Shown piece after piece: positions 19,600 through 55,544 of a DNA stretch of 64,000 nucleotides; position 1 is the stretch's first letter, and every line of letters begins with the position of its first letter. The notes below the pieces were generated by a model. It was not told where the DNA came from. It did no database searches and saw only the letters and a program-made list of their open reading frames with translations. The translations under genes were made by a program, and so were the position numbers. The stretch is from positions 4,278,001 to 4,342,000 of the forward strand of contig NC_081397.1 in assembly GCF_030684315.1 (NCBI RefSeq), in the 5' to 3' direction. This DNA is from Stegostoma tigrinum. Taxonomy: Eukaryota.

Positions 19600-20745
19600 C
19601 GAAATGTGACGTTATTGACTTGGTCCCCGAGCTGGCTTGTTTTTGTTCACACGTTTTGCCACCATGCTAGGTGACATCATCAGTAGAGCCTCTGATGATG
19701 CAACATTATTCTCCTCTGCTTGGAATTTACACTGTCCAGTGTGTTGTGCTGAGTACTGTTATTTCAGTTTTGATCCGTATGTGTTTATACGTGGGGTCAT
19801 ACATGGGATCCAATTCTGTGTTTTTTTTTTAGATTCCCTACAGCGTGGAAACAGGCCCTTCGGCCCAACAAGTCCACACTGCCCCTTGAAGTATCCCACC
19901 CAGACCCATCTCCCTATAACCTACACATCCCTGAACACTATGGGCAATTTAGCATGACCAATCCACCTAGCCTGCACATTTTTGAATTGTGGAAGGAAAC
20001 CGGAGCACCCGGGGGAAACCCACGCAGACACGGGGACAATGTGCAAACTCCACACAGACATTTACCCAAGGCTGGAATCGAACCCGGGTCCCTGGCACTG
20101 TGAGGCTGCAGTGGAGAACCATCTAGGAACTCCTGTACGTGTTTGTTAGGCTTAGGCTGCTACGGTTTCTTTATCCAACAAAAGCAAAAAGGTGCTGAAC
20201 AAGCTCAGCAGGTCTGGCAGCATCAGTGAAGGGGAAAACAGTTAGCCTTTCAGGTTCAGTGATCTATCCTCGGAACAAGTTACTGCTAAGCTGCAGACTT
20301 TGTTTTTTGCTCCTGATTTACAGCATCCACAGTTCTTTGGTTTTATTTGGTTACTTTGTCCCATTTCAACTGATGACCTTCGTTGTCTGAATCTATCACA
20401 TATTCAGACAATAAAGGCCATCAGGTTAATATGGAGACAAAGTAACCATGGTTGCCCAAGCCAAACACAGGCACACACAGGAATCCCTAGAGGCATGGTT
20501 TTCCATCCATTCTTCAATCAACAAACACATAGAATCGGACCCCATATATGAAAACTCAGATCAAAACCAGAAATGACACTGCTCACCATAATGGACCATA
20601 CAGTATAAATTCAACTCAAGAGTGGAATAACATTGACTCATTGGAGGCTCCACTGATGTTGCCAATGAGCACAGTGTTTAACTGTATGGAAAAAAAAGCA
20701 AGCCAGCTCAACAAGCAAGTCAACATTGTCCAATACCTGAGCTGC
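19600..20745. mobile_element. Penelope family B fragments in opposite orientations around a SINE and a pLTR fold-back
   Basis: 19600-19820 resembles 46435-46640. 20410-20745 resembles 4690-4930 on +. Confidence 0.55.
19832..20113 (-). mobile_element. tRNA-derived shark-type SINE
   Basis: The reverse strand has a B-box GGTTCGATTCC, a GTGTGGAGTTTGCAC core and a CR1-like tail (GAAGGGCCTGTTTCC). Confidence 0.9.
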
Positions 20746-20948
20746 AGATCTTTGCCAAAAACATTAAATGCTGAAAGTTGTTCAAACTGGGCAGGTGTGC
20801 ATTGTGAATGTTGGAAAAAAAAACAAACTTGTATTTCCTCAGTGATGTTTGAACAAATCTCACTGGAAATTGACCTCAATGTGTGTCTGACTCAATCTGC
20901 TCTGTGACTGTGGAAACAATGTTCTCTGCTCCGACAGCAGGAACATAC

Positions 20949-21030
20949 CTTCTGTTTGTTAGATGCAGCTATTCACACTTGGCTTTGTGCCGAGGGAATA
21001 TTACTCTCTCTTAGTCACTCAAGTATTTGC
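20949..21030 (-). other. Exon-like cassette, copy A (82 nt)
   Basis: Minus strand reads CTTCTGCTTTCCTCCAG|GCAAATAC...ACAGAAG|GTATGT. Paralogous to three other copies. Confidence 0.5.
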
Positions 21031-24000
21031 CTGGAGGAAAGCAGAAGAGCGCCCTCCTGTAAATTAACATCAGCCAAGTTTGATAATATTTCATTGATCA
21101 ATGCAATGTTCAGTTAATAATCATTACAATATTTCATTTCAAGTCAGGAATCTTAACAGAATTGGGTGTTTGATGCCACTGTTGCTCTGAGCTGCTTCTT
21201 TGTCTTGCGATTTTTCTTTTTGTTAATTCCATACCAATTGAGTGAAGTGCAGACACTAAGTGTCTAGATCCACAAATGGGACTACACAATGCAAGTGTGT
21301 CTGTAGATATGAGTTTTTGTTGATCTATTCATGTCTCACACAAGCTGAGCCTTTGTTAAATTACTTATGTATTCACACAGCAGAGACTGGCAGGGACCTA
21401 TGAGATTCTGCCCTGCGTTTATTTGAGAAGTCATCAAACTGTACTTGACTGTGGTTTTCTTTCCCCTTTGTGAATATGAGAATGTCGTTGTCAGTTTTTA
21501 CCTGACTGTGTGTGATGTGGGAATGTTTGTGTCAGTTTCTGCAAGGTGAGTATACATATCCATCTGAGCCAGTCGTTTTCTGCTATCTGAATGTAGGACA
21601 GTAGGCTTCAATCTTTGCTTCTCAGTTTCTGCTATGTCAACATGTGAGCATGGTTTTTCATCTTTACCTGCAAGTTCCGAGCTTTGAACGTGTGGGTACA
21701 ATTGTTAACATAACCCTGAATGTTTCTGCTTGTAAAAATGCAACCATATTCAGCCAATCGTACTTGTCATTTTCAGACATGTGAATATGAAAGTCAGACT
21801 GATAACTACATTGTCAGTTTCTGTTCTGTAATTGAGTGTGCTTTTCAGTGCATACCAACCAACTTCTGTCGTGTGAATATGATTGTCATTAACAATCCGA
21901 ACCTTGTCAGTTTCTCCCCAGTGAATATTCTTGTGTAATTATCAGATTATACCTGTAAGTTTCAGCTGTGAATTATTCACTGTTAATTCATTCGTTATTA
22001 CCTTCTGTCCATCAGTTTCTGGTTTCTAATGTGTGAGTGCACCTAAGGTTTGTATGTGTCAAATATTGCAATGTCAATTTGTGCACACAGTTATCAATCC
22101 GCTCCTGTCAGCATCCTTTGTTAACATCAGGGTGCGGTCATTAATCTACTCTGTCACTTTCAGCTCAATGGATTTGAGAGTGTAGTTACCAATCCATAAC
22201 TGTCAGGTTCCAGTGTGAATGTTAATAGAAGAGGCAATAGTCTGGTAGCATTATTGTTGGACTATTATTCCAGAGAGCCAGATATTATTCTGTGGACCCC
22301 GTTTCAAATCCCATCATGGCAGACAGTGGAATTTTAATTCAGCAATAAACTAAGCAAAAAGTTGACTGACAATTCTCCACGAAAATAAATCTGATCCTCT
22401 AACATCCTTTTGGGAACAAAGTCTACCATCCTTATCTGGTCTGGCCTACATGTAATTCCAGACCCACAGCAGCGTGGTTGGCACTTAACTGCTTTCTGTG
22501 CACAATTAGGGGTAGTCTGTGACACACACATCCCATCAATAAATTAATAAAAAAAATGTTGGAATGTAGTTATCAATCTGTCTCTGCCAGTCACTGTTTT
22601 GTTAATGTGATGAAAGTTATCAACCTGTACCTGTCAATTTCTGTAATGTCCATATATATCAGCAGTTATTAATTTCTACCAATTTTTCTTGGTTTACGAT
22701 GTCACCAGAGAGCTGATCCGTACCTGTTAGTTTCTGCTCAGAGTGTATTTATCAAATTGTTCCTGTCAGTTTCTGCTCTGTCAATCTGAGAGTGCAGTTA
22801 TTAATCTATACCTGTCAGTTTCTGCAAGGTGAATGAGGGGGTTCTGTTATGAACATACACCATCAGATTCTGCTCAGAGAAGTGAGAGCAGTTATCATGC
22901 TGCCACCATCAACTTCGCTCTGTAAATCTGAGTGCAGTTATTCATCTGCACTTGTCAGTTTCACGTTTGTGAATGTGAGTAATGTGTTCTCTCCCCATCT
23001 GTTTCTTTTCCTTGAATATCAGTTTAGTTATCATTCTATCCTTGATAACTAATCATACATTTTCTCAGCTAGGGAGAGCTAGGGAACTTGGGGAAATAAA
23101 TATGGACGTCTTCAAAATAGTCCGCATGACATTAACAGGAGTTGTTAGAGGCAGCAAGAGTAAAAACACAAAGTGGCTAAATCGACAGGACCCAAACAAG
23201 TTTTTGTCGATTTTCAGGATATCAGGATTTTGTGGGAAGCTGTGTTGATAATTTGAACAAATGACATTGTTTTCGTGCTTTCTTGTAATATTTCGAGGGA
23301 AGGATCATCCCATCCCTGTCACATATTGCAATACGAAGTGTGACTATGGTCATCAAATGTGTACACTCAGTTTCTGTTATGTGAATGCGACAGTGCAGTT
23401 ATAAATCTCAGTTTCTGCAGTGATAATGAGAGTGTAATTATCAGTCTGTCAGTTTCTGCTATATCCATATGGGTTTAGTTGTTATCAGTACATGTTAGTT
23501 TCTGTCATATAAATGTGAGAGTGTCACCAGCCTGCCCCTGACAGTTACTGTACTGAAGGTGCGTGACTGTAGTTACCAAGCTGTAGCTCTCCATTACTGC
23601 CATGTGAATGAGGGTAGTTGTGCACCTACACCTTGGCTTTCTAATGATCAATGTGTGAGTGTCGTTGTCATTTATATACCTGTTTGGATTTGCTTGTCAA
23701 TCTGAGTTTAGTTATCGATCTGTACTTGTCAGATTCTGCTGAGAAAGTGTATGATTAGTTATCAAACTGTACCTGTCAGTTTAAACAATGTGAAATCGGG
23801 AGTTTTATTATTAATCTGTTCCTGTCAGTTTTTGCTGTGCGGATATGATAGATGTGTTATCAAAAGTCATCAGTAACTGCCATGTGAACATCTGAGTCTA
23901 TTTACCGGTCAGTCCCTGTCCGTTTCAGCTCTGTATCCGAGTGTGCAATTATTAATCTGCAACTGGTAGTCTCTGCTACATGACTATTTCAGGGCATTTA

Positions 24001-25469
24001 TCAAACTTTCCCTATCAGCCAGTGAGTGTGCTGTGAATGTGCTTCGCAATTTGGACTTGCCAGTTCCAGTGCAGAAATGTAAATAACAATTTCTCCTCGT
24101 CAGTTTCTGCTGTATGTGTTAATGAGTGGAGTTAGAAATCTGTACACATGTTTGTACCACACAAATACAGGTACAGATGTGACTCTTTCTCTGTATGTTT
24201 CTGCTACGTGAATATCTAAGCATGGTTACCAATCGGTACATGCCAGCTGCTGCTTTGTGAATCTGTGAATTTAGTTGTCAGTCTATGCCTGTCAGTTTCT
24301 GCTTTAAGAATGTATGAGTGCAGTTATCAACATGTACCTGTCAGTTATTGCTCCATCTATTTGTTTTGTGCAATGGATTGTGTAGAAGCAAAAGGTTTTG
24401 TAACTCCAACAGTGCAGAGTCTAACTGGGACAAGTTATCAAGGGCTGTTCATCAGGATAACATCAGCTTTTCTGACTGCATAGTAACATAATTCTGTGAG
24501 TAATGCTGTGGAATAGACAGATGTGGAATTCCTTCCTTCGAGTCTAAAGGAAAAGGGCAACGAACAAATCAACTGTATTCAGCTGAATGACCACAATGTT
24601 CCTTCTACAGGGAAGGGTATTGGCTAATTCACTTCATTATTCTCATGAATATTACATAACCCTGCTCTGTGGCGTGACGGTGCACGGCAGCAGCAATACT
24701 CTTATGGTGTGCTGTTGTGGGGATGAAGAAAGCAAAAGGACTTGTATTTTCTGTCTTACAGTGGAGAAGATTTAAACTTATTGAACATGGTCAAACTCTT
24801 TGCCAAAAATAATTGACAATTACAAGATTTAGTTAAGTAGATCATTCTTCATTGCTTTAAATGGTGATTACATCATTAATGTGAAGAAACAGCATTCTTT
24901 TTACGTGCTTTTTTTTGTAATTTCATTGGGAGGGGCAAGTGACACAAAACTGTTTAACCTCGTTGCCAAATTCACTTCCATGCTTCCCCACCGACGCCCC
25001 CAGACCCAAAAAGAAATTTTGCAAGCCAGATGGAAAATACGGTTTCTATTCCTGAAGGTGAACATGTTGAGGATCACGTTGTGTTGAAGTTGGGGTTGGC
25101 AAATCGTATACTGCCATGGCACACTTATTGAAATGGAATGCTGGCTGAATGGGATCAGAATTGTCAGGTGCTTGTTTTTGTCTACGATCAACCTGATGGG
25201 CTGACAGGTCTTTTATTCTGTCCTGTGGACTCCTCCTCTGCTTATATTAAAAAGCCGTAAACATTTTGTATGTATCCACTTGTTACCTGTAGTGTGTATA
25301 GGTATCATTGTTGTTAGTTTTTGTATGTTATGTGTTGATACAAAGAGGATATTTGGGACTCAATCTGAATCAGTCAGCAGCTTTGTGTGTGTCTGCATGT
25401 GCTCAGTCATGATTTGCTACTTGCCAGTAACACTACTTGTCACACGTGGTTGTTGAAACTATGTAACAT

Positions 25470-28749: not shown

Positions 28750-28832
28750 CTGCTGTTCGTTGGAAGCAACTGCGCACACTCGGCTTTGTACCGAGGAAAT
28801 ATTGCATCAACTGGTTTCTTCAAGTATTTTGC
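28750..28832 (-). other. Exon-like cassette, copy B (83 nt, GC donor)
   Basis: Minus strand reads TCTTCTGTCTTCCTCCAG|GCAAAATAC...AACAGCAG|GCACGT. Confidence 0.4.
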
Positions 28833-29045
28833 CTGGAGGAAGACAGAAGATATATCTCTCGTCAATCAACATCAGCCAAATTTGACAATATCAAACAGAT
28901 TAACATATTCAGGTACCAGTTATTAGGATGTTTCTTTTCTTGAACTTCACCTCTCAAAGCAGAACTCCAAAAGTTTGTGATTTTAAATAAGCCTGTTGGA
29001 CCACAACATTGTGTCATGTCCCCCTCCCTCCCCCCATCCCCCTCT

Positions 29046-29073
29046 CTGATGAAGGGTCTAGGCCCGAAACGTC
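29046..29073 (+). ncRNA. Minimal hammerhead ribozyme core 1
   Basis: CTGATGA-AGGGTCTAGGCCC-GAAAC-GTC. Stem I is only about 2 bp. Confidence 0.6.
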
Positions 29074-29366
29074 AGCTTTTGTGCTCCTGAGATGCTGCTT
29101 GGCCTGCTGTGTTCATCCAGCCTCACATTTTATTATCTTGGAATCTCCAGCATCTGCAGTTCCCATTATCTCTGATACTATTTTAACCTCACTGCGAAGC
29201 CTCTTCCAGGGATGCCTAACCTGAAGAAGTTACCCTCCTCCCTCCGGACCAACCTCAGGGAATCTCTCTCCCATTGCAACTCTCTTGTATCTTCTTTGCT
29301 CTCCATCTTCGGTCCGCCTCCCCCTCTCTCCCTATTTATTCCAGTTCCCTCCCCCCATCCCCCTCT

Positions 29367-29394
29367 CTGATGAAGGGTCTAGGCCCGAAACGTC
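29367..29394 (+). ncRNA. Minimal hammerhead ribozyme core 2
   Basis: Identical motif 321 bp downstream of core 1. Confidence 0.6.
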
Positions 29395-29687
29395 AGCTTT
29401 TGTGCTCCTGAGATGCTGCTTGGCCTGCTGTGTTCATCCAGCCTCACATTTTATTATCTTGGAATCTCCAGCATCTGCAGTTCCCATTATCTCTGATACT
29501 ATTTTAACCTCACTGCAAAGCCTCTTCCAGGGATGCCTAACCTGAAGAAGTTACCCTCCTCCCTCCGGACCAACCTCAGGGAATCTCTCTCCCATTGCAA
29601 CTCTCTTGTATCTTCTTTGCTCTCCATCTTCGGTCCGCCTCCCCCTCTCTCCCTATTTATTCCAGTTCCCTCCCCCCATCCCCCTCT

Positions 29688-29715
29688 CTGATGAAGGGTC
29701 TAGGCCCGAAACGTC
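29688..29715 (+). ncRNA. Minimal hammerhead ribozyme core 3
   Basis: Identical motif 321 bp downstream of core 2. Confidence 0.6.
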
Positions 29716-30414
29716 AGCTTTTGTGCTCCTGAGATGCTGCTTGGCCTGCTGTGTTCATCCAGCCTCACATTTTATTACATTGTGTCATGAGAGTTGTGTC
29801 TGATCTTTAAGGGCATCAATTTAAACACAAGTCTGAATCAATTCTTACATCAAGCTGCTTCTTGGCTGAGGATTGTGTTTTTAAATATGTAATTCGACAC
29901 TGAGTGAGATTCAGAAACTGAACAATAATTGCACAGCTCCATCTAAGGTGCTACCTGAAGATGCTGCACCGTTGACACAGCTCATGTTACCAGATCCCAA
30001 CACACTGACTGTTGAAGAGAACAACAGCCGCTATTCCAAATATTTTTCCCGAGACGTATGATCTGTTAACTCCAATCTGCGTCCTTTATAGGTCTTCCAC
30101 TGCGCCCTCCACCATCCCCGGCAACTCGCAACTAACAGCGTAAAACAGCAGCCAAACAGTGAATTTGCAGTGTTTACAAGTCTAAAAGCTACAAGACTGA
30201 CCCCCAGCAGCTTCTTGCCGCTGTGTCTCCCTCAGCAGGCCCACACACAGCCCGAGAAAGGCCTCTCTCTCCCCCTGCCCCCAGGCCGCTCTCTCTCCAA
30301 GTTCCGGGACCAGTTCCTGCCCCGCTCGGCCTCTGACCAACAGCCCCGGGTTCTCCCGGAACTGAGCCCGAATCAATGCCGGTCTCGGAGCCCCCCTCTG
30401 TGTCCCAGACTCAC

Positions 30415-30625
30415 ATCTCGATGCGCTGCCGGAAGGAGCCTGCTGCTCCCTCGCTTCCCTGGGCGCTGGTCTCTCCATTGCGGCCTGTTTCAAACAAACC
30501 TCTTCCACTCACTGAGTAAATGCCCCTCAATGGCAGCGCAGGGGGAGAGCATCACGCATGCGCTCCCCTGGTCATCAAAAAGCAACATTGGGGGCACCGG
30601 GCCAGCCTCACGCATGCGCTGTTAA
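30415..30625 (-). promoter_or_regulatory. CpG-rich promoter with two NRF1-like sites and putative first exon (left copy)
   Basis: GCGCATGCGT at 30554-30563 and 30610-30619 (minus). GCCGCAATGG start context (ATG at 30478). Donor GTGAGT at 30414-30409. Confidence 0.6.
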
Positions 30626-31168
30626 CCCCATTTTTTTTAAAAACCGTTTGCAGGCAGCGCGGACCGGACACGGGATCATTGCCTGATCTGAATGTACCAG
30701 TCAGGAGGGAAGCGCGGGGTTTAATACAGCCCAGGCAAACTGATCAACCGACTGGGTAACCGTGGTTAATCAATCTTATCAAACCCGCCGATTTAAACAA
30801 CTTCTGAGCGATTAATTACAGAATCCCATTTTTTTCGGGGCATGTTTAGTTTGTAATGCAATTGCTGCCTGAAATGTATTTCGCAGGCAAAATGAAGCAA
30901 TAACCGTTAAAACATCGCCAGAGATCGTAGCATCAACATTAGATAAAATATCATTCCTGGAAGGGTTATACTGCAATATGCAACATTAGTGTCTGGGCAG
31001 AATTACAAGCCGTGGGAGGAAATAACCAGATGCAGTTCCAGTGACCCTCCCCACATGATACCATCCTCATTTTCAGTCTCCGCTCTCGGAAATGTGATAT
31101 TTGAGTTAATAGAATCAATTCAAGTTTATGCTCTGTCTGCACTCGGAACCGGGACAGGGATAATTTGA

Positions 31169-31337
31169 CTTAGAGACGGAGCTGCAGATGCTGGACAATC
31201 TGACGTAACAAGGTGTAGTGTTGGATGAACAGAGCGAGCCGAGCAGCATCAGAGGAGCAGGAAGAAGGATCTCGGTCCGAAACGTCAGCTTTCCTGCTCG
31301 GCCTGTTATGTCCAGCCAGCTCTCCACCTTGTTATCT
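31169..31337. mobile_element. Fold-back Penelope pLTR insertion with ~14-bp TSD just 3' of H1
   Basis: Inverted pLTR halves, flanked by CAGGGATAATTTGA (31155-31168) and CAGGGATCATTTGA (31338-31351). Confidence 0.75.
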
Positions 31338-31359
31338 CAGGGATCATTTGATCCGGGCT

Positions 31360-31401
31360 CAGCTCTTTCCTGGAGAGATGTGGGTGGCTCTGAGAAGAGC
31401 C
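31360..31401 (-). terminator. H1 3' stem-loop and histone downstream element
   Basis: Minus strand reads CCAAA-GGCTCTTCTCAGAGCC-ACCCA (31386-31401), then AAAGAGCTG (31368-31360). Confidence 0.95.
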
Positions 31402-31437
31402 TTTGGGTTCAGGTGGTGACACATTACACCGACTGCT

Positions 31438-32076
31438 TCATTTCTTTGCTGCTTTCTTGGTCACTTTCGCTTTGGCCTTCGTCTTCGTTTTCACCGATTT
31501 TGGGGCCGGTTTTGAGGCCTTGGGGCTCTTGGTCTTTTTCACCTTCTTCACGGGAGTCTTTTTCTGAGGCGCTGCTTTCTTCGCCGCTTTCTTTGGCGTT
31601 GCTGCCTTCTTGCCGGCCGCTTTCTTTCCTGTTGCTTTCTTGGCTGGGGATTTCTTCGCTGCCACCTTCTTGGCCGTTGTTTTCTTCACGGCTGCTTTCT
31701 TGGCGGCTGCTGCGGGTCTCGCCTTCTTTCCCACTTTTGCCTTGACCTGATTCTTTGGGAGTTTGAAGGAGCCGGAGACGCCCTGGCCCTTCACCAGAAC
31801 CAGGGAGCCTTTCGCCAGGCACCTCTTGGTAGCCATCCTGATCTGTGCATTCTGCTTCTCCACATTGACCCCGCTTCTCTGCAACGCCTTCTTTATAGCG
31901 GCCAGAGACGTCCCCTTCCGATCGCTGTTCTCCCCGACAATCTTCACAATCCGCTCGCCCAACCCGGGACCGGCTGTTTTTTGCCTGGGGGCCGCCGCCT
32001 TCTTCTTCTTGGGAGTCTTGGGTTTAGTGCTGGCGGAGGCTGGAGGAGCCGTTTCGGCGGCTGCACTGTCGCTCAT
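31438..32076 (-). CDS. H1: Histone H1, replication-dependent, 212 aa
   Basis: Globular domain (DRKGTSLAAIKKAL...VKGQGVSGSFKL), K/A/P-rich tail with SPAK/TPKK/SPK motifs, intronless, with a 3' stem-loop. Confidence 0.97.
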   Translation of the reverse strand: MSDSAAAETAPPASASTKPKTPKKKKAAAPRQKTAGPGLGERIVKIVGENSDRKGTSLAAIKKALQRSGVNVEKQNAQIRMATKRCLAKGSLVLVKGQGVSGSFKLPKNQVKAKVGKKARPAAAAKKAAVKKTTAKKVAAKKSPAKKATGKKAAGKKAATPKKAAKKAAPQKKTPVKKVKKTKSPKASKPAPKSVKTKTKAKAKVTKKAAKK

Positions 32077-32154
32077 GTCGGGAACTCTGCGCTGAATCTC
32101 TCTCTGTCAGACTGAGCTGGGTCAGCGATGAAGCTGCTGGTGGCGGCACTGAGC

Positions 32155-32583
32155 AACTTAAAGGCAGCGAGCGGACGGCGCGGAGACAACCTGCCCTCAG
32201 CTCCCTGCTCCTGCTGCCTCTCTGTGTTTCTCTCTCGGCAGAAACTCTCCAATTCCTCTGCAATTCCGCATCTCCAGAGAGCCAGGTTCGATCGTTCCTG
32301 ACCATGACACGGGAAGGTTTGCGGCCAAAAAGTTTTCACTCGAATTGACGGCTCCGTTGTCGAGTTAAACGCATTTTGCTGCTGCTCTGATCGCGCTCTC
32401 TGAGCTGAGCGCTGGCATTATCCTCACTTTTGGACTGAAATCTTGAAATCAACAAATACACAGCCTTGAATTCTAGCTTTCGGGTTTAGTGGGGGAGCAG
32501 GTGGATAAATGGAATTGAAAATATTTTCGATCTGCACAAGAGAGATTCGGAAATATCATGATATGAGCGGACAGACAAACACA
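32155..32583 (-). promoter_or_regulatory. H1 promoter: TATA-like TTTAAG, H1 (AC) box and upstream TG box
   Basis: Minus-strand AAACACA at 32229-32223, TGTGTTT at 32583-32577 and TTTAAG at ~32162-32157. Confidence 0.75.
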
Positions 32584-32919
32584 GTGACGTTTGACTAACC
32601 CGCCCGCCCGTCTCCCACAGTCTCTCTGATTCAATATTCACATCCACACAGTCACAGGCCAGAAACATCGCCAAATGTAAATATGGAAGGATATCATTTG
32701 TTTTCCTTTCAGCTTTTGCTCGATATCAGGGAGTTAGTTGGAGATTTTCCCCTCAGTAACTCTTAAACTCTCTGAGGCCGGTGTGCTGGAGATTCGCTCT
32801 TCTCCACATTCAGCTGCAAAAGCCAATCATCTGGTTTGAAGTTATATTGATCACCCAGATCAGTTTTTTTTTAATTTTCATTCCGGTGACAAGACTCAAC
32901 ATCGGTTCTGGGAGTAATC

Positions 32920-34722
32920 AGACATAGAAACACATATAATGGCAACTTGGCCTGACCAATCGGCCCTTCAAACCACTCCTCCAACTCATCATGAAAATGG
33001 CAGGTGATCTAACTCAATAGCCTGTGTCCGTTCTTCTCTCATATGGAGTCGCTCAGCAAGGATGCATAACCTTCAGTCCAACCATAACATGCCGAATATA
33101 ATGCCAAACTGAACTAGTTCCACCAGCCTGTCCCTGGCCTGTTTCCTTTCAAACCTGTCATGTTTACCTACTTATCCAAACGCCGTTTCAAGGCTGTATT
33201 TGTAGTCACATGGGCCGTTTACTCAGGAAGTTCATTCCACTTGCAGCCGGCTCTGTGACAATAAAACCCTCGTGTCTTTTGTTTTAATCTCTCTCCTGTC
33301 ACTGTAAAAATGTTCACGCCGCTCCTCAATTCCCCCCATCCCAGGCAAAGGACAACTGCCATTAACTCTGTCTCACCCCCTCATTATTTTATGAACTTCT
33401 ATAAGCTGACTTTCAACATGCCACACTCTAGTGAAAAAAAAACTCCCAGCCTTTCCATCCTTCCTTTATAACTCGAAAACTACATACTCGGCAATTACCG
33501 GTGAGCCTCTTTTGAACCATCTCCACCTTAACACTGTCCTTCCTCTCACTGGCCAACTGGCCTCACCCAATGCCCAGTGTAACGTCAATGTGATTGTCAC
33601 CTCCTAAACTCAAAGGACTCAGCAGTGAAGGAAAGCGTGCCAAACACCTTCTTCACCATCCTGTTGAGGTGTGATGCAGACTGAAAAGAATTCTCGATCC
33701 TTCTGTTCTGCAACACTACCCATTAATTGTACAAGGCCTACCCTTGTATGTTGCACCAAAATGCAAAACCTCACAGTTATCCAGTTGAGTGCCATTTTGC
33801 AGCCCAGCCGATTGGATCACGATCCCTTTGTCATCTCAGAAAACCTTCTCCACTCACTGTGCTACTAACTTTGTCAGCATTCACAAACGTGCTTACCATG
33901 CCTTCTATATTCTGATTCCAATTATTTTTATAAATGACAAACAAAAACAGAGCCAGGACCAATCCCTGTGGAAAGCACTGGTGACAGGACCCTAGTCGAA
34001 AAAAAAACAGCCCTCCACCTTCACTCTCTCTCTATTGCCATTAAGCCAATTATACCTTGATTCCCTTTATTCACAATTGCTACACCCAATAACATTTTGA
34101 AATCATATAGTGAGTTGGATGTGGCTGATTTCTGCGGTAGAGAATTCCAGAGGCATACCATTCTCTGTGTGAAGAAATCTCTCCCTTTCTCAGCCCTAAA
34201 TATCCTATCCCATCTCTGAAAAATGTCACTCACACCGTCAGGAATATTTTTTCCAGCATTTATATTTTTTATGACTGCCAGTGTCTTACAGATTTCTAAG
34301 AAAATCCCTCATCATTCTGAATTTAAGTACACAACAATTCAATCTCTCCTTTCATCCCAGCAATCTGCCCACTAAAACTACCTTTATAGTGACACCATCC
34401 TTCCTCAGATAAGGAGGCCACACCTGCTGTCAATATTCTCAGTGTTGTCTCACAGATGCTCTGTTAAATTGTCACAATTTCTACTTTTCTCCTGTACTCT
34501 AATTCTCTCTCCATGAAGGAAAACATACCTGTTGCCTTTCTCACTGCCTGCCACACCTATATGCCTCATTTCATTGATTGATTTGTGAGGGCACCCAGGT
34601 CTCATTGCAAATTCCACTGTGTCCATTTATCGACGTCCAGAAAATAAAGTGCCTTCCTTTTATTTTGCTACCAATGTGTATAACCTTACATTTATACACA
34701 TTATACCATGCCTTCCTGGGTG
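32920..34722 (-). mobile_element. Two decayed CR1 LINE fragments
   Basis: FFTQRMVCLWNSLP and YKCKVIHIG motifs in minus frames. CR1-type 3' tails. Confidence 0.7.
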
Positions 34723-34724
34723 AA

Positions 34725-35168
34725 ATTGAGGACACAGTAATGGGAAGGGGAGTTGAACTGGTTCGCGTCTGGGAGGTGCATTTGTTTACTGCGAGCAAAG
34801 ATGTTCCATAAAGCAGTCCCCAAGCCTCCGCTTGGTTTCCCCAATGTACAGAAAGCCACACTGTGTACAGCAGATGCAGTCTCCCACATTGGCGGACATC
34901 CAGGTGAACATCTGCTTGATGTGGAAAGTCATCTTGGGGCCTGGGATGGGGGTGAGGGAGGAGGTGTGGGGGCAAGTGTAGCACTTCCTGCGGTTGCAGG
35001 GCAAAGTGCCGGGTGTGGTGGGATTGGACAAGCGAGTCACGGAGAGAGTGGTCTCTCCAGAAGACAGGCAAGGGTTGGGTGGGAAAAATGTCTTTGGAAG
35101 TGGAGTCGGATTGTAGATGGCAGAAGTGTCAGAGGATGACGCGTTGTATCGGAGGTTGGTGGGGTGGT
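34725..35168 (-). mobile_element. Penelope GIY-YIG segment (continues at 36215)
   Basis: CNRRKCYTCPHT...CGFLYIGETKRRLGDCF. Confidence 0.9.
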
Positions 35169-35169
35169 A

Positions 35170-36213
35170 ATGAACATAGAACAATACAGCGCAGAACAGG
35201 CCCTTCGGCCCTCAATATTGCTCCGACTTGCGAACTAATCTAAACCCCTCCCCCTACACTATCCCATCATTGTTCATATGCTTATCCAAGGACTGTTAAA
35301 TGCCCCTAATGTGGCTGAGTTAACTACATTGGCAGGCATGGTGTTCTATGGCCTTACCACTCTCTGAGTAAAGAGCCTGCCTCTGACATCTGTCTTAAAT
35401 CTATCACTCTTCAATTTGTAGCTATGCCCCCTGTACAAACTGAAGTCATCATCCTCGGAAAAAGACTCTCACTATCTAATCCACTGATCATCTTGTATGT
35501 CTCTATTAAATCACCTCTTAGCCTTCTTCTCTCCAATGAGAACAGACCCAAGTCCCTCAGCCGTTCTTCATAGGGCCTGCGCTCCAGACCAGGCATCATC
35601 CTGGTAAATCTCCTTTTCACCTTTTCCAATGCTTCCACATCCTTCCTGTAATGGGGCGACCAGAACTGCACGCAATATTCCAAATGAGGCCGCACGAGCA
35701 TTTTGTACAATTGCATCATGACATCATGACTCCGGAACTCAATCCCTCTCCCAATAAAACCTATCACACAGTAAGCTTTCTTAACAGCAGTATCAACCTG
35801 GGTGGCAACTTTCATGGATCTGTGTATGTGGACACAAGATCCCTCTGCACATCCACACTACCAAGAATCTTTCCATTGATCCAGTATTCTACATTCCTAT
35901 TATTCCTCCCAAAGTCAATCACCTCACATTTAGCCATATTAAACTCCATTTGCCAACTTTCGGCCCAATTCTGCAGTTTATCCAAGTCTCCCTGCAACCT
36001 GCAACATTCTTCCACACTCTCCACCACTCCACCGACTTCAGAGTCATCTGCAAACTTACTAACCCATCCACCAATGACTGCATCCAAGTCATTAATAAAA
36101 ATGACAAACAGCAGTGGTCCCAAAACAGATCTTTGAGGCACACCACTAATGAGCGGGCTCAAGGCTGAATATTTTCCATCAACCACCATTCGTTGCCTTC
36201 TTACAGAAAGCCA
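35170..36213 (-). mobile_element. CR1 LINE 3' portion inserted in Penelope
   Basis: [22 protein letters not shown]...SKFADD, RPHLEYCVQFWSPH and LFSLERRRLRGDLIE. Confidence 0.95.
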
Positions 36214-36214
36214 G

Positions 36215-36878
36215 AGGACTTTGGGATTCGCTTGGGGCAATTACTGTGAGGGCGTGGTGTGAGGGATGAGGTACAGAAAATGCGGGAGACACGGTCAACA
36301 GTGTTCTCGATCGCTGCGGGGGTGGGGGGGAGGGTGGTGATGTTGCGGCCCTTGAAGAACAACGACATCTGGGATGTGCAGGAGTGGATTGCCTCATCCT
36401 GGGAGCAGATGCGGCAGAGGCAAAGGAATTGGGAATAGGGGATGGAATTTTTGCAGGAAGGTGAGTGGGACGAGGTGTATACCTGGTAGCTGCGGGAGTC
36501 GGTGGGCTTGAAATGGACATCGGTTTATAGGTGGTTGCCTGAGATGGAGTCAGAAAGGTCCAGGAAGGTAAGGGATGTGTTGGAGATGGTCCATGTGAAC
36601 TTGAGGTTGGGCTGGAAGGTGTTGGTGAAATGGATGAACTGTTTGAGCTCGTCTTGGGAGCATGAGGTAGCGCCGATACATTCATCAATGTGACGGTAGA
36701 AGAGGTGGGGTTTGGGGCCAGTGTATGTGCGGAAGAGGGACTGTTCTACATATGCCACAAAGAGGCAGGCATAGCTTGGGCCCATTCCTCAGACGACATG
36801 TCCATCCTGGGCATTTTGCAGTGCCATAATGATGCAACCCGTAGGTTGCATGAACATCAATTCGTATTCTGCTGGAGG
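36215..36878 (-). mobile_element. Penelope RT segment plus short inverted piece (36785-36878)
   Basis: MGPSYACLFVAYVEQ...HIDECIG...PNLKFTW. The + strand piece reads SSDDMSILGILQCHNDATRRL. Confidence 0.9.
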
Positions 36879-36879
36879 T

Positions 36880-37086
36880 AACAGCGCATGCGTGAGGTTG
36901 GCCCTGCCCCCATTGTTGCTTTTTGATGACCAGAGGAGCGCATGCGTGAGGCCCTCTCCCTGCGCTTCCATTGAGGGGCATTCACTTAGTGAGTGGAAGA
37001 GGTTTGTTTGAAACAGACCGCAATGGAGAGACCAGCGCCCAGGGAAGCGAGGGAGCAGCAGGCTCCTTCCGGCAGCGCATCGACAT
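36880..37086 (+). promoter_or_regulatory. CpG-rich promoter with two NRF1-like sites and putative first exon (right copy)
   Basis: GCGCATGCGT at 36884-36893 and 36938-36947. ATG at 37023 (MERPAPREAREQQAPSGSAST). Donor GTGAGT at 37087-37092. Inverted copy of 30415-30625. Confidence 0.6.
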
Positions 37087-37880
37087 GTGAGTCTGGGACA
37101 CAGATTGGGCGCTTCGCGACCGGTATTGATTCGGGCTCAGTTCAGGGAGAACCGGGGGCTGTTGGTAAGAGGCCGAACGGAGCAGGAACTGGTCCCGGAA
37201 CTTGGAGAGAGAGAGCGGCCTGGGGGCGGGGAGAGAGAGGCCTTTCTCGGGCTGTGTGTGGGCCTGCTGAGGGAGACACAGCGGCAAGAAGCTGCTGGGG
37301 GTCAGTCTTGTGGTTTTCAAATTCCCAACCACTGATGGAAATTCCTTGTTTGGCTTCTGTTTCATGCTGTTTGTTGACATTGTGCAGTCAAAGTCGAAAC
37401 ACAGACAAGACTGTGGAAATATAAGAACCCTGTAAAGGACATGGATTAGAGTCAATATATTCTACAGTTAGTGCATTGGGATTTGGTAACATGAACTGCG
37501 CAGACATTGCAGTGGCTCTGGGTATCACCTTATGTGGAGCTGTACAATTATCGTTCCATTTCTAGATTTTACTCAATTGCTATTGAAACAGATATATATT
37601 TTTTTAAAAAATCCTCAGACAAGGCGCAGCTGAAAGCTAAAATGGAATCAGACCTGCATTTGAAATGATGACTTTAAAGAAAAGGCAGATGTCTCATGAC
37701 ACTGTCATCATCTCTCAGGTTCTTTTGAAATGACAGACTTTTGGAGCACTGTTGTTCAGAAGAAGTTAAAGAACAGAAACATCCTAATAATTATAAACTG
37801 AGTATTACAGTAATCTTTTTGACATGGTAAAACTTAATTGATGTTGATTTACAGGAGTAAACTCTGCTGTCTTCCCCCAG

Positions 37881-37962
37881 GAAAACACTTGCAGGAACAA
37901 GACAATGTTATGTGTGCTTGGTACGAAGCCAAGGGTGACCAGCTGCTTTGAACAACCAACAG
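37881..37962 (+). other. Exon-like cassette, copy C (82 nt)
   Basis: CTCTGCTGTCTTCCCCCAG|GAAAACAC...ACCAACAG|GTATGT. Confidence 0.5.
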
Positions 37963-39592: not shown

Positions 39593-42500
39593 AATTTTTC
39601 TTTTTTGTTCTTTGACACACTGAATTCGTAAGAAGTAGTCCAAGAAATATATCGAACAAGAGATTAACTTCACCTCTCTATGTGTCACCATCTCATCGAC
39701 TGAGAGAGATAATTAAAGTATCATTTTCTTTTGTACAAACTGGAGAAATTGCATATCAGGATAACTTTCAGATTGAAATTGAAATTGATATTGTCATTGC
39801 ATTTGTTTGCATAAAACTACAAACTGAATAGTGAAAACCATCTGATACACTTCTACTGAATATAAACTTTGCTATTAATAGACCAGAAGGAAATCAAGTA
39901 GTGACCTGAAACGATACAGAGAATAACCTACATTCAAGCAGACAACCTAGATTTTTGAATGTACAAGTAAGAATGTCTCATACAGTGAGCTTGCAACAAC
40001 AAATGAACATTAAACTCTCTATGTATCCAGACCAGAGACAGAGCAAGCCGAAATAAAAGACAGAAACCCTACCCTAGAAATTATACAGGGAGAGAATGAT
40101 AAATGCATTCACAAACCAGATAGCGTCAGGCATTGCCTAAAAACTCATCTCTCAGATTTCCAGGACAGGATCTGACGGGGCCAAATGGGTAAAAACACTT
40201 GCACAGCCAGAGAGAAGAAACTGACAGGCACGTATTGCTAACGGCGCACTCATATTCACATATCAGAAAAGGACAGGGACAGAAAGATAATTACACACAC
40301 ATTCAGACTGCAAAAACTGACAGGTACAGGCTGATAAATACATGCACACATGACAGGACAGCAAAAGCATAAGCAGATGTAGATTGATAACTACATTTGC
40401 ATATTCACAGACAAATTTGACAGGGACATATTTGTAACACTTTCACATTCACAAAAGAGGAATTGATGGATATAGATTGATAACTAAACTCACATATTTC
40501 ACAGCAGAAACTGAGAGGGACAGTTTGATGATTACGCTCATATCTTCACATGACAGCTAACAACAAGTACGAGTCGATGATTACCACTCACACACATATA
40601 TTCATAGATATCTGCAGCACAGCAAAGAGTCCTTTCTCTCACTGAATCTACACTGTTTAGAAACAAACAGCCGACAATTCGACATCAATTCAGCCAGGAT
40701 TCAAATTCCATAAATGTGTCATGTTGGCAGAGGAAGTATCATCCTCACGTTTATCAGTTGTCAATTTCTTCACCAAGCATGATCACTTTTTTTTATTCTA
40801 TATTAAGCAAGAGGACTTTATAATCAGAGACCTTTTGTTTTCAAATTAGCTTAAAATTTGTTCAAATAGCTCTGTGTTCCTCTTGACAATCCACCTGAAT
40901 TTTTACATAAAACACAAGAAAGCTTCATGCCATTTTTTTCAAACAAGCAATATCACAATATAACCGTCCTCACTTATATTTTGCAAAGATTGTTCAACAG
41001 TGTTTATTCTTCAGTAAATTCAATTTGACAGTTCCAGTTGTGCCCAGTGAATGACAGAAAACAAAAGGTCAACACCGAGCACGTTAATGTCCGCGCCGTA
41101 AAACGAATTCGAAGTAAGAAAGCTAATTTTCTTTCCTGCACAAGCAACATTGTGGTCAGTCAGCCGCAATGCAGTTGATTTGTTCATTGCACTTCCTCTT
41201 TGGCCATAACATACTAAATTGACATCTTTACTTTAGCAGCATTCCAAGACTGGTGTCATGATGCAATGTTGAATAATATTAATCTCATCCTGAAAATTTC
41301 CTTTGATATCACCACAGCGGTTAGACTCTGCAATGTATCCTTGGCGAAGGTCCATTGCTTGTCTGTCCTCAACTCTGAAGAAAAGCACAGACTCATTTCA
41401 GTTGCAATGCCTTGCATTTTCACTTTGCTTATAAATGCTGGAGGCACAAACAACTGAAGAACATGGGCTGTTTCACATTTGCGAAAGAAGAGATGAACCA
41501 AAAACTCTGTCCTCTGCCATGGTGGTAATTGGCTCTCCACTTTACAAGAAATACTTAATCTGCTCAGTAACGCAATACAGGAAGATAGAAATAGGATCAA
41601 TTGAGTGTATCTGTCTGTCTTGTTTCATAACAGCAGCTGTTGTGCCAATACACAGTAGGTACAGAATAACCTACAAAGTGTGGAGATGCTGCCAGGTTAG
41701 TAGATACCCAGGCAAAAACAAAAGAAAATGCCATTTCTCTTAAATATCACATGGGTGGAAAAGCTCCCGTTTCATTACGCATTAATAGGACAGGGTAAGA
41801 GCGAAGTTCTTCAATCCCAGTATGTGAATACTTTCCTTGAGGATTAAGTATGAGGTATCAGCTTGGCATAAAGTAAATTCGTCATGTTCACGACATCAGA
41901 AAATACTGAATCGATTGCATGATCGATGATGAATTCTACTGAAACAGCTCAAGAAGTAAATTGAAATCCAGATTAAATATGCCTCCAAATATCACACCAT
42001 GTCTTAGATTTGGACACGTAACTCGTGCATCAACTTCCTTTGTTGAAACTGAAGGAAATATATAGTAGGCCAAGTTTAAAATGAAATAAACATTACAATT
42101 TAGTTTGCTTCCAAAGAGGTACAAATTAAAAAGCAGCTCTCATCTCGTGCAGAAGTACTGCAGAAAGATGTTGTTAAATGGACCAAAGAAGAAAGCAAAT
42201 GGGGTCGTGAACAGATACAGATAGCTGGAGTTTATTGGAAATAGATTGAAGAAACGCTGATCTCATGATCTTGTTACAGGAGGAATAAATACACATGCAG
42301 TTTTTGAGTGACTGACCAATCCAGAACAAAACTTACTATCGTAAACCGGACAGTAACCAAACTGTATCTACAGAGTCAGAGACTGACAAAGGTATTAAAA
42401 CAGTTTAATTTACACAATCTGATTATATGGCATTGGGTAAAATCTCATTCATGTTGAGCAGCAGAGATTTGAACAATAGAAGAATGTCAGCAGTTCCTAC

Positions 42501-43609
42501 AAGTAACACGTTCAATGCAACATTACCCACTCGTTACCCATGTGAAATATGATGACAACGCATGAGGAATACATTGACACACAATGCCAGAGACTGAATC
42601 GATTCCATGCTGACTGTCAGCCCGATGCTGATGAAAACCAACAGTAACCACTCTTATAATCTCAGTGGGAGACTGACTATTTCAGAAGAATGCCCATACT
42701 CTCTTTATGATTAATGTATTATAAATTAGTGTTATAATGATATAATAGTTTATAATACACCTCATAAAGGGAATCAAATCATACATGCAGAGCTAGAAAC
42801 ACAAGCAGACGTTTGGAAGAGGACAGTGTCACTTAGCCCAATACCCATCTTTAATTCAGATTGGCACCTCATTAGAAATCTCCCTCTCATACAACAAACA
42901 GATGCTGAAAGGAAAGGAATGAAATTTATACCTCTGGTCAGCATGGACTGTTGGACCAAAGGTCTGTTTCCCAGATGTACTTTGACAATATTGCTGCACT
43001 CTCATATTCACAAAGCAGAAACCGATCAGAAGAAACTCACAGTACCACTCCCAAGCCGCATGTGGCATAACAAGGCATTTATATTCACAGAGTAGAATCT
43101 GATAGGGGGAAATAACAATTTTATTTCCATATTCAAATGACAGAAACTGATTGGAAAATGTTTACAACTGCACTTCAACATTCACACTGCAGGTAATGAC
43201 AGGGACAGATTGATGACAATGTCCGTATATGCACATGGCCAAGAATGTTAGGTAAAAATAGATAACTGTATTCTCATATTCATGGAGAGGAAAGCATGAC
43301 AAATTCATAACTACATTTATATATTCACATCACAAAAACTGATAGTTGCAGATGAATAACTACATTCTCAGGTTCCCAGAGCAGACGTGGACAGATACAG
43401 ATGGAAATTTGCACTCAAATATTCACGGTGCATGTTCACACGTCATTATCAACAGATTAATTACAAAACTCACATCTGTACAACAGAAATAGACACTGAT
43501 TGCTGTGTGAAGGTGCAATTGTATTTTTCAATCAGTCCCTGTCAGTTTTCACAATGTGGATGTGTTATTTCAGTTATCAATCAATACCTGTCAGTGAATG
43601 CCACGTTAA

Positions 43610-44780
43610 TGTGTGAGGATAGTGTAATGCACGTTAACTACATGGATTTTAGTAAGACATTTGATAAAGTACCATGCAGCAGATGAATCAGAAATGGAAA
43701 GGCTTTTGGGATACACAGCAATGTGCTAAATTGGAAGCAAAGTTTGCTTAGAACAGGAATCAAATGGTCAATGGCTGCCCTTGTAAACCGAAAGCTGTTT
43801 CAAGTGGTGTTTCTCATAGCTCAGTGTTGGGACTTCTGCTGTTTGTTTTATATGATAACAACTTGGACTTGAACATGGGGATACAATTGGGAAATTTTCA
43901 GCCAGCACAAAAATTTAACAGTGTACTGGTAGTGCAGGGGATAACTGTCAGCTCAAAAATGATACTGAAGTTTTGGTGGAAGGGGCAGATGAGTGGCATA
44001 TGGAGTTCAACTCTGATAAATGTGAGGTAATGCATTTCAGGAGGTGCAAGGACACAAAATAGGAATACATGAGGTGGTGTGGAAATTGTACGTAAAGTGA
44101 GTGGTTTTGGTGTGCAAGTGTAATGGAGTATGAAAATAGCAGTATAGGTGGATAAGATTGTGAAACTAGGTATATAGAATGCTGTCCTTTTTTGGCAGAG
44201 GTATACAACACAAAAGTCGGGCTATAATGATGAAAGTATTTAAGACACTGGTGAGGCTGAAATTGATGTATTGTGCGGCGCGATGGTCACCACATTACAG
44301 GAAAACGTTATTGCTCTGGGTATATTGCAGAGAAGATTTACTGGAATGTTGCCAGGGCTGGAGAGTTATAGCTATGAGGAGTGATTGTCGAGGTTGGAGC
44401 TGTATTATTTTGAACTCTGAAAGCTGGGAGTGAGGCAATTGGGATGGGCAGAGATAGAGTCGACAGGGGGAATCTGTTTCCCTTGGCATAGAGTTTAAAA
44501 ACCATTGGGTGTAGATTAAGTGAAGTGGCAGGACAATGAGAGATGATGGGAGGAAAACCATTTTTATGAGAGGGTGCTTATCTCAAATACGCTGCCTGAG
44601 TTGCTGATAGCAGAGATTCTCAACTCTTGGAAGAACACACCTGGACCTCCACATTAAGTCTGCAAGCTGCACGGCTATGGGATGTTTGCAACAAGATCGG
44701 ATTTTATGATGGCCATTTTGGGGTGTTTGGGTCAGCATGGATATAATGAGCCAAATGGCCACCTTCTGTGCTGTATAATT
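43610..44780 (+). mobile_element. Old CR1 LINE fragment
   Basis: YMDFSKTFDKVP, SGVSHSSVLGLLLFVLY and WSPHYRK. Confidence 0.85.
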
Positions 44781-45213
44781 TAAATTGGTCAATAGTTCCT
44801 GATCATTCTGTCCCTGTCAGCCTCTGCTGTGTAATACATGAATAATTACCAAAGACCTAGAGGGACACATTGATAACTACACTCACACGTTCACCAAGTA
44901 GCAACTGACATGAATAGATCAATAACTAAACTCGCATCCACTGACAAGCTTCCACTGGGTGGTTCCAGTCATGGAGCTGTACAGGTATCGTTTACTTTCA
45001 GGAGCTCATTCAAATGGTGTTGAAATTTTTAGAAATGATCAGACGTGGAGCAGCTCAGGGCAAGATTGGATCAAGACCCATAGTTATGTTAGAATTCCTA
45101 GTAATATTAATATATCCAAATGATTATTAACTAAATGTTGTGTTGATCAGTTAAACATTGTCAAACTCAATTGATGTTGCTTTACACGAACTATCTCTTC
45201 TGTCTTCCCACAG

Positions 45214-45296
45214 AAAAAAACACTTGAATGACCAAGACAAAGTAAGATTTCTTCAGTGCAGAGGAAGTGTGACCAGATCCTTCTGATAAACAGCAG
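45214..45296 (+). other. Exon-like cassette, copy D (83 nt)
   Basis: TCTCTTCTGTCTTCCCACAG|AAAAAAACAC...AACAGCAG|GTATGT. Confidence 0.5.
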
Positions 45297-46434
45297 GTAT
45301 GTTCCCACTGTCAGAGCAGAGAACATCCTTTCCGCAGTCACAGAGCAGATTGAGTCGGACACACAGTGAGCTTAATTTCCAACAGATATGTACAAATTTT
45401 TCCAACAGGAGAACAAGGTTGGAGAAATTAAACTTTATTTTTCTTATCTCTCCATTCCACATACACAGTTCCAACAAACTTCAGCATTCATTTCCCATTG
45501 ACTTTTACACCATTTTTGAAAATGGATAGACTGAAATTATACACTCAGTATCTGAATGAAATCTACGTAAACTTACTCTACTAGCAATTATCACATAATG
45601 AATCACACCTCCACTAAGAATATTACTGGCTGCTGACAATTAAGCCACTTTTACAAGTAGAAAATGACCAGTATGGATTGATGCCTAACCTCACTCATTT
45701 GTATTGCAAATGCATACAAAAGAAAAAGGATGACGAGACTCACATATTGACATTGCAGAAACCGACAGCTAAAGATTAATAAAGATATTCACACATTCAC
45801 ATCATAGAAACTGGGATACACAGGTTAGTAAACAACACTCACATTCACATAGCAAACTGACAGCAACTGAACGATAACTACTTTCACATATCCACACAGC
45901 AGAAACTGGCAGCTACATATTGATGACAACTCCCAATTTCACAGACCATAAAGTGACAGGTACAGTTTTATAACTGCATACCCACAGATTTAAAAAATAC
46001 CGACGGGTACAGTTTGATAACTATACTCAAATATTCACAAAGTAGATTCCCACAGGTACATGTTGATAACTTTACTTGCAAATTATGAGGGACTGATAGG
46101 TACAGGTTGCTGTACATGCATATATCCATACAGAAGAAATTGATAGGAACTGATTGACGATCACTTTAGAGATAGCAAGAGCTGCAGATTCTGGAGTCAG
46201 CCTTCCCAGTTTCACAAAGCATTAGCTGACAGGTACAGTTTGGTAACTACTCTCATATTCACAGAGTAGAAGCTGACAGGCCGTTATTGATAACTGCACT
46301 CACATGGTCACCAAGCAGAAACTCAGAGATTGATAACAGTGACATTCAAATTGCAGAAACTGGCGGCTACACAATGATAACTGCTGTCACACTTGCATTG
46401 CATGAACCGTTGGGGTCAGATTAATAACTATGCT

Positions 46435-47200
46435 GTTGTTGAATTGCTCGACAAGCTTGTTGCTTGTTTAGAGACATTTTGTCACCATCTACATAATACC
46501 TTCAGTGCACCTCTGGTGATGTGTTGCTGTTGTGTCCTGCTGGCTGTTTATGTGCTGCAGTTTGCTCGGGTGGCTGACATCACTTCTGGATTTGTTTCTC
46601 AGTGGTTGGTGTATGGGATCCTGCTCTACGCATTTGTTAATGGCATTCCAGTTTGAATGTCAGGCCTCCAGGAATTCTCGTGCATGTCTTTGGTTGGCTT
46701 GTCCTCAGATGACTAAGTTGTCCCAGTCTAATTGGTGTCCCTCTTTGTCCATGCGTATTGAGATGAGTGATAGTTGGCCATGTCTCTTGGTGGCTAGTTT
46801 GTGTTTACGAATCATGATGGCTAGTTTCCTACCAGTTTGGCCTTTGTACTGCTTTTGGCATCTGTGCACGATATCGTGCAAATAACGTTGGTTCTGTCAG
46901 TTGTGGTTGTTGGTTCGGGGCAATATGGTGCTCATTTCTGATATGTTTTTCATGTTTGGTCAGGTGACTAGTGTCCCTGGACGTGCTGTGTTATCCATTT
47001 GTCGTCTGTTGTGCAGGTGTCGAAGGACAATGCTTTTCAGGTAACCTTCGTTTCTATAGTCACTGTATCGTGTTCTTCCTCAGCTTTACGCAGCTCTGGA
47101 TGCTGCAGTGTGTTGTGGCTCACTTGAACAGTGTTTTGGTGCAGCTCCATGAGTAGATATTGGGATGATTGCTATTGTAGTTGAGTATCTGATCAGAATG
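46435..47200 (-). mobile_element. Penelope family B fragment
   Basis: The reverse complement encodes GQTGRKLA...HKLATKRH and HQLDWDN...HAREFLEA, matching 4480-4935. Confidence 0.8.
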
Positions 47201-55502: not shown

Positions 55503-55544
55503 GACACCTCGCTGCTGAAAGCAGACACCAATCCAAAACCCAAC

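Follow-up and report, generated by a model that had tools for sequence, protein, structure and literature searches.

Organization of the locus

We analyzed a window of 64,000 nt from the zebra shark (Stegostoma tigrinum, NCBI RefSeq assembly GCF_030684315.1, contig NC_081397.1, positions 4,278,001 to 4,342,000 of the forward strand), which contains histone genes and two CpG-rich blocks in inverted orientation (Table 1). In the 231 stop-to-stop frames of at least 75 codons Pfam recognized the histones H1, H2B, H2A, H3 and H4; apart from these it gave two pieces of reverse transcriptase and three matches below threshold. An Rfam scan of the window returned histone stem-loops only, and no tRNA was found in it; a zinc-finger gene, considered as a first guess, was rejected because the C2H2 pattern occurred in none of six frames inspected. 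Each block heads a larger unit, and an exon of the right unit is joined to the 5′ untranslated region (UTR) of the H2B gene in a predicted RefSeq model. This arrangement suggests that a spliced H2B leader may begin in the right block, with its distal promoter and first exon there.

Table 1. Features of the analyzed window (positions in nt, counted from the first letter of the window)
Feature	Position	Strand	Basis or remark
Right CpG-rich block (candidate distal promoter, first exon, start of intron 1)	36875-37312	+	alignment, CpG count
Left CpG-rich block, inverted twin of the right	30190-30628	-	alignment, CpG count
Two NRF1-like GCGCATGCGT motifs, right block	36884-36893, 36938-36947	+	spacing 54 nt
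Two NRF1-like GCGCATGCGT motifs, left block	30610-30619, 30554-30563	-	spacing 56 nt
Right exon 1, ATG to GTGAGT donor, 64 nt	37023-37086	+	sequence
Left exon 1, ATG to GTGAGT donor, 64 nt	30415-30478	-	sequence
Right exon 2, 82 nt	37881-37962	+	joined to H2B acceptor gives XP_059498483.1 exactly
Right exon 3, 83 nt, from an old duplication of exon 2	45214-45296	+	H2B models at paralogous loci use its homologue
Left exon 2, 83 nt, strong acceptor, donor GC instead of GT	28750-28832	-	splice-signal inspection
Left exon 3, 82 nt, acceptor and GT donor intact	20949-21030	-	splice-signal inspection
Degenerate satellite-like repeat, right arm, lying in the leader intron and reaching almost to the H2B promoter	40214-54668	+	
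The same satellite-like repeat, left arm, opposite orientation	18900-24351	-	
Pyrimidine tract and splice acceptor in the H2B 5′ UTR, AG end at 55110, 11 nt before the ATG	55076-55121	+	
H2B coding sequence; histone stem-loop	55122-55502; 55540-55585	+	126-codon frame; Rfam RF00032
GTGAGA donor overlapping the H2B stop codon	55499	+	
Segments homologous to 3′ exons of whale shark H2B models	57078-57128, 57375-57491	+	
Histone H1 gene (31438-32076) with stem-loop, between the blocks	31361-32076	-	
Remnants with homology to the H4-H3 spacer (60050-60234), adjoining the left block on its upstream side	30648-31006	-	
Antisense side of the H1 promoter, rival first exon	32128-32284	+	homologue is the first part of a Hemiscyllium H2B model
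Repeat fragment truncating the right block ~10 nt upstream of its first motif	36250-36873		repeat comparison

The first-pass annotation had described two inverted copies of ~440 bp, each with paired motifs, an ATG, 21 codons and a GTGAGT donor, and this description was confirmed by alignment: the blocks differ by 23 mismatches in 434 aligned columns (92.9% identity over 449 columns in blastn), and blastn detected no third copy in the window. The motif GCGCATGCGT is NRF1-like. Its 9-mer has only four matches in the window, where 0.06 would be expected, and four matches were reached in none of 100 shuffles; since the block copies are duplicates, the four matches count as two independent sites. 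The complete NRF1 consensus GCGCATGCGC does not occur across the window. A scan of metagenomes for the twin motif gave nine loci, none of them with homologous flanks. The right block lacks a TATA box and carries ETS-like motifs as well. A single CGCATGCG palindrome at 59989-59996, in the H4-H3 spacer, is the only other one in the window.

The left block contains 23 CpGs and the right block 24 (observed/expected ratios of 0.56 and 0.64, GC contents of 63% and 60%), whereas 1038 overlapping background windows of 445 bp, taken outside the blocks and the histone regions, had a median of 6 CpGs and at most 20. The statement that the window is otherwise CpG-poor did not hold, as the histone genes reach ratios of 0.68-0.81. 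CpG islands are commonly defined by a length of at least 200 bp, a GC content above 50% and a ratio of at least 0.6, and the right block falls within this definition (445 bp, 0.60 and 0.64).

The length of ~440 bp originally given for the copies applies to the part of high identity; the homology itself does not end there but continues at ~75% identity through the downstream exons and the satellite. The blocks head two older inverted paralogous units, which run away from H1 (70-79% identity past the blocks), each into two exons of 82-83 nt and an oriented satellite. Flanks included, the four copies of exons 2 and 3 from both arms are 72-77% identical to one another, the acceptor being intact in all four and a GT donor in three. 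A rule requiring a pyrimidine tract, YAG, 70-99 nt and a donor selects exactly these four copies on both strands of the window, which illustrates rarity and not prediction, because the rule was composed after the exons had been seen. The orientation of the satellite follows the arms: of 20 plus-strand matches 19 lie at 40.2-54.7 kb, and of 24 minus-strand matches 22 lie at 18.9-24.4 kb.

Several further observations concern the arms. The homology between them stops near 18.9 kb on the left, where a degenerate 33-bp satellite present in both orientations begins (14000-18900). Left intron 1 contains a 321-bp unit repeated 2.3 times at 99% identity (29025-29777), which is either a repeat end duplicated in tandem very recently or an artefact of assembly. 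Two short intronic non-repeat stretches, 24553-25177 on the minus strand and 40661-41194 on the plus strand, are 76-84% conserved between the arms, and neither an open frame nor an exon signal was recognized in them.

A leader exon is joined to H2B in predicted models of three shark genera

Replication-dependent histone genes are the textbook example of unspliced S-phase genes. The H2B gene of the window fits this class, with an intronless frame, a 3′ stem-loop and its own TATA box. It falls into a cluster of six zebra shark proteins from one 15.6-Mb contig, four of which are longer isoforms. In one of these, the predicted RefSeq model XP_059498483.1 (P0004), the first 19 residues are identical to the translation of 37905-37961, and when right exon 2 was joined to position 55111, behind the AG at 55110, the translation reproduced the whole model letter for letter. 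The other three longer isoforms stem from paralogous loci and use exon 2 together with part of exon 3, for which they require an internal donor that is absent from the copy in this window. RefSeq XP models are predictions, presumably based on RNA-seq data. In a sequencing-run index four runs of one study contained 32-37% of the query words, and no RNA run was among those listed. The H2B of the window is a member of a large subfamily in cartilaginous fishes, which has many copies per genome and whose N-terminal tail is divergent. Separately, a piece of a long interspersed nuclear element (LINE) at 52686-52718 (plus strand) equals the first 11 residues of zebra shark XP_059498475.1, where it is joined to a frameshifted H2B, which suggests near-identical neighbouring units.

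To follow the leader across species we used a set of 190 listed H2B proteins in which large clusters are represented in part, so that all counts refer to the matches listed. The cross-species homologues were found through an H2B tail search; a search with residues 1-62 of P0006 returned only the zebra shark cluster (one of two candidates). An exon 2-type leader is present in 6 of the 190 proteins, four from zebra shark and one each from Chiloscyllium plagiosum and Hemiscyllium ocellatum. In the Chiloscyllium model XP_043539670.1, residues 21-48 match three of the window exons (0/1000 shuffles) and the fourth less closely (11/1000), while its first 21 residues match exon 3 only (0/150). On a frameshift-tolerant score made for this analysis, the Chiloscyllium peptide beat all 150 shuffles for each of the four window exons, and Hemiscyllium XP_060712804.1 gave 0/150 for three of them and 1/150 for the fourth. 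The leader exon type therefore precedes H2B in three genera, in two of them as a tandem pair. In zebra shark, Hemiscyllium and whale shark models the join lies four residues ahead of the H2B methionine, at the same acceptor. The reading frames of the leaders differ between models and no frame is conserved; hence it is the exon and its splicing that are conserved and not the peptide, as befits a UTR leader.

The 3′ side of the gene also carries splice signals. Models from whale shark, zebra shark and bamboo shark are extended at the C-terminus, and the extensions of the whale shark models map to conserved segments 1.6-2 kb downstream; AATAAA or ATTAAA hexamers follow H2B at 55790, 56074, 56858 and 57233. 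Two similar modules upstream of H2A (57200-57330 and 57840-57910), the first without a gene behind it, lie in a CpG-rich, A+T-rich stretch and are possibly a duplicated part of a histone promoter.

Exon 1 and the candidate distal promoter

In both blocks the ATG of exon 1 has G at -3 and +4 and is followed by 21 codons plus 1 nt before the GTGAGT donor. The right exon 1 ends in phase 1 and forms TGA with exon 2 and TAA with exon 3, so that the 21-codon frame closes at the junction; the left frame ends after 29 codons with left exon 2 or 27 with left exon 3. Judged from the sequence, the ATG probably opens an upstream open reading frame (uORF). Of the earlier view that the block is a promoter with a first exon, this remains the likeliest role, but the 21 codons are probably not protein-coding, given the junction stop with the right exons and the absence of the peptide from the proteins searched. 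Joined directly to H2B, exon 1 would be in frame and give 151 codons with 25 extra N-terminal residues, an agreement with a one-in-three chance, and this join is present in no protein model.

CpG richness, the consensus donor, the TATA-less sequence and the ETS-like and NRF1-like motifs argue for exon 1 as a transcript start. No other CpG-rich stretch with a consensus donor lies closer to exon 2 than the right block, which precedes it by 794 nt. The Penelope-like repeat fragment on the upstream side of the block ends ~10 nt before the first motif; if the right copy works, the block alone must therefore suffice.

Near-identity of the two blocks

The identity between the two arms drops sharply at 30190/37312, from 23 mismatches in 434 columns to 95 in 371, and none of 300 permutations gave a step as sharp. 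Within the blocks, exon 1 is 98% identical, the first 225 intron bases 95% and the promoter part 92%. The intronic part shows no less conservation than the promoter part, which favours recent conversion or crossover between repeat units over selection at the level of the motifs; such selection alone is unlikely to have caused the 95% identity. We used CpG decay as a proxy for germline methylation: 20 CpGs are common to both blocks, and none of the five discordant sites is TG/CA, compared with 67 of 102 in 11 repeat pairs of the window, which overlap and are mostly older (p=0.006). Both blocks may, as the first-pass annotation supposed, be active and unmethylated, although the difference is not significant against the youngest repeat pairs (see below).

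The left unit and the H1 neighbourhood

As previously noted, the left block follows the H1 stem-loop at a distance of ~750 nt and on the same strand. In the interval between them, a stretch matching the flank of a second H1 remnant (62306-62478) is followed by one that matches the H4-H3 spacer: 31006-30868 aligns with 60234-60084 in 99 of 154 columns (0/300 approximate shuffles), and 30704-30648 pairs with 60106-60050. On account of these matches this H1 has the appearance of the last part of a unit from which H4 and H3 were lost and to which an inverted leader was joined. The proposed link of the blocks to histone transcription holds through the right copy, which leads to H2B 18 kb away, but nothing was found for transcription from H1 into the left copy: a match to the block or the left exons was seen in none of 150 listed H1 relatives, a set outside which the window's own H1 lies. 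The left unit is either an orphan or splices over more than 20 kb to a target beyond the window.

Two further histone sequences lie to the right. Of the second H1 remnant (minus strand) the 3′ end and flank alone survive, 84% identical to the intact H1. The H4 gene at 60527-60901 (minus strand) has 124 codons, with an unusual C-terminus by an apparent frameshift near its end and two unusual residues, and is either a pseudogene or an assembly error.

A proposed distal promoter for H2B and alternative explanations

Our preferred interpretation, in which we place moderate confidence, is that a spliced H2B leader has its distal promoter and first exon in the right block, and that the left block is an orphan twin of the right one. 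The right block would be a TATA-less, CpG-rich promoter at which RNA polymerase II starts, plausibly driven by NRF1. Polymerase would travel ~18 kb and pass through the H2B core promoter, and the transcript would be spliced from the donor of exon 1 (37086) to exon 2, optionally to exon 3, and to the acceptor at 55110 in the H2B 5′ UTR. The product would be an H2B mRNA free of S-phase histone promoter control, whose translation the exon 1 uORF may dampen. In carpet sharks the leader would form part of the histone repeat unit. The left block would head an old inverted paralogue whose histone target was lost or lies more than 20 kb away, its first 434 bp having recently been homogenized with the right type by gene conversion or non-allelic crossover.

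Several observations weigh against this interpretation. The tenth base of GCGCATGCGT is T and departs from the NRF1 consensus, although the 9-bp core is exact in all four sites. The left core stays below the usual ratio of 0.6 (0.56 at a GC content of 0.63; 0.68 when the upstream flank is included). Measured against the four youngest repeat pairs, the difference in CpG decay is not significant (0/25 versus 2/24 sites, p=0.23), and the argument from CpG protection is weakened by the recent homogenization of the twins. The exon 1 peptide is found in none of the predicted proteins searched, and a protein search that used the 40 codons beginning at the right ATG scored none of 15 candidates, a search that is weak by the tool's own note; as the junction stop closes the uORF, the missing peptide is expected even if exon 1 is used. 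That stop lies 82 nt ahead of the next junction and could provoke nonsense-mediated decay. For the left unit there is no target gene in the window, no histone gene in 1-19 kb, and a GC donor at exon 2. On a strict protein-level test Hemiscyllium XP_060712804.1 is weak (36/1000 shuffles at best). Finally, other models attach exons derived from LINEs, short interspersed nuclear elements (SINEs) or the H1 antisense side to H2B (P0057, P0109, P0127, P0069); since such unrelated exons also join there, the H2B acceptors appear promiscuous. Such joins, the contiguous upstream ATGs used by 32 of the 190 H2B proteins, and H1-H3 fusions indicate that the histone annotation in this cluster is noisy.

The same annotation bears on a serious alternative, which we consider less likely, namely that the blocks promote a non-coding multi-exon family of the repeat unit and that occasional read-through is spliced into the pyrimidine-rich H2B 5′ UTR. 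Poly(A)-selected data, in which normal histone mRNA is depleted, would then inflate these rare joins into gene models that yield no meaningful H2B. The joining of unrelated exons to H2B, the lack of a conserved reading frame, the chimeric H1-H3 models at three zebra shark loci and the left unit, which retains its exon set without a target in view, would all be expected from read-through. What it explains less well is that three genera have this exon type ahead of H2B, two of them as the tandem pair, and that splice signals have remained largely intact in exon copies that are no more than 72-77% identical. As an observation in its own right, the three chimeric models (P0206, P0356 and P0357, zebra shark RefSeq proteins from outside the window) carry most of H1 fused in frame to the H3 fold, by genomic fusion, splicing or prediction error.

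We are more doubtful still that the spliced H2B transcript starts at the divergent side of the H1 promoter, with the right block as an internal exon or a secondary start. Hemiscyllium XP_060712942.1 opens with a homologue of this region joined to H2B (0/150 shuffles), a T-rich tract with a CAG end lies between the two right motifs near 36932, and the upstream flank of the right block is cut by the repeat insertion. Yet XP_060712942.1 lacks the exon 2 type; paired motifs, CpG richness and the absence of a TATA box suit a start site better than an internal exon; and the left twin has identical anatomy with no antisense H1 promoter ahead of it.

That the block is a young transposon or solo long terminal repeat, inserted twice and CpG-rich through youth only, would agree with its sharp borders, its 95% identity and the little CpG decay that the young repeat pairs of the window likewise show, but is highly improbable, since there are two copies in the window against up to 12-13 overlapping matches for the repeats of the arms, both copies occupy the equivalent position of an older duplication with homologous downstream flanks, no Rfam family is matched, the 231 frames contain no transposon family but reverse transcriptase, which occurs in two LINE pieces that lie away from the blocks, and neither a terminal repeat nor a poly(A) tail was seen by eye; the possibility of a young element, raised in the first-pass annotation, is thereby largely excluded.

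The distal-promoter interpretation could be extended to a methylation-gated NRF1 route to H2B in germline or non-dividing cells, with the leader exons as a switch and conversion keeping the heads of the units alike, although we regard this as quite improbable. Inclusion of exon 2 or exon 3 would place a stop at the exon 1 junction and, through the uORF, allow little normal H2B to be made; skipping of both would bring the exon 1 ATG into frame and give the 151-residue H2B.

Comparison with known histone genes and NRF1 promoters

The statements on published work made here refer to the accessible portions of the cited sources. Human HIST1H2BC, HIST1H2BD and HIST1H2BK give spliced polyadenylated mRNAs through a donor between the stop codon and the stem-loop (PMC5100578), and these are polysome-associated and increase upon differentiation (PMC3661734). 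As in the shark, where the transcripts are predicted models, a stem-loop H2B within a cluster yields spliced transcripts with a donor at the coding end and 3′ exons. In the mammalian isoforms described, however, splicing is confined to the 3′ side, whereas the shark models have a multi-exon leader that enters the 5′ UTR from 18 kb away; moreover, the shark donor overlaps the stop codon and some models extend the protein, while the mammalian donor follows the stop. With respect to the definition of the mammalian isoforms, a donor between stop codon and stem-loop with the protein unchanged, the shark H2B falls outside.

Genes of the H3.3 and H2A.Z type have CpG promoters and a 5′ UTR intron. These replication-independent variant genes carry introns and are polyadenylated (10.1101/720235). 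The putative shark start resembles them in being CpG-rich and TATA-less, with non-coding leader exons before the histone frame. They differ in being single, dispersed and free of a stem-loop, whereas the shark H2B keeps its TATA box and stem-loop and its leader recurs along with the cluster unit. NRF1 is sensitive to DNA methylation in vivo (PMC6923324), and in mouse it regulates germline genes (PMC12420836). Like NRF1-bound CpG-island promoters, the right block has two palindromic GCGCATGCG cores in a CpG-rich, TATA-less stretch; its T at the tenth motif base sets it apart, and the site is a candidate only.

We found no report of spliced shark histone genes or of 5′ leaders into stem-loop histone genes, in a search outside which most of the subscription literature lay. 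A catshark preprint notes recently duplicated histone clusters and, in its accessible part, nothing further (10.1101/2024.05.23.595469). Supplementary Table S11 of 10.1101/720235 lists, by its title, human histone genes departing from the single-exon rule and may contain 5′ precedents, such as a human H3 gene with an upstream exon, for which the accessible part of PMC12457037 gave no confirmation.

The spliced shark H2B leader is already present in RefSeq, as unremarked predicted models. If the distal-promoter interpretation is true, these sharks would have a different solution for providing canonical-type histones outside S phase, with a distal promoter and a multi-exon 5′ leader in three shark genera. 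If only read-through is involved, the arrangement would explain the odd extended histone models of sharks in RefSeq as by-products of annotation.

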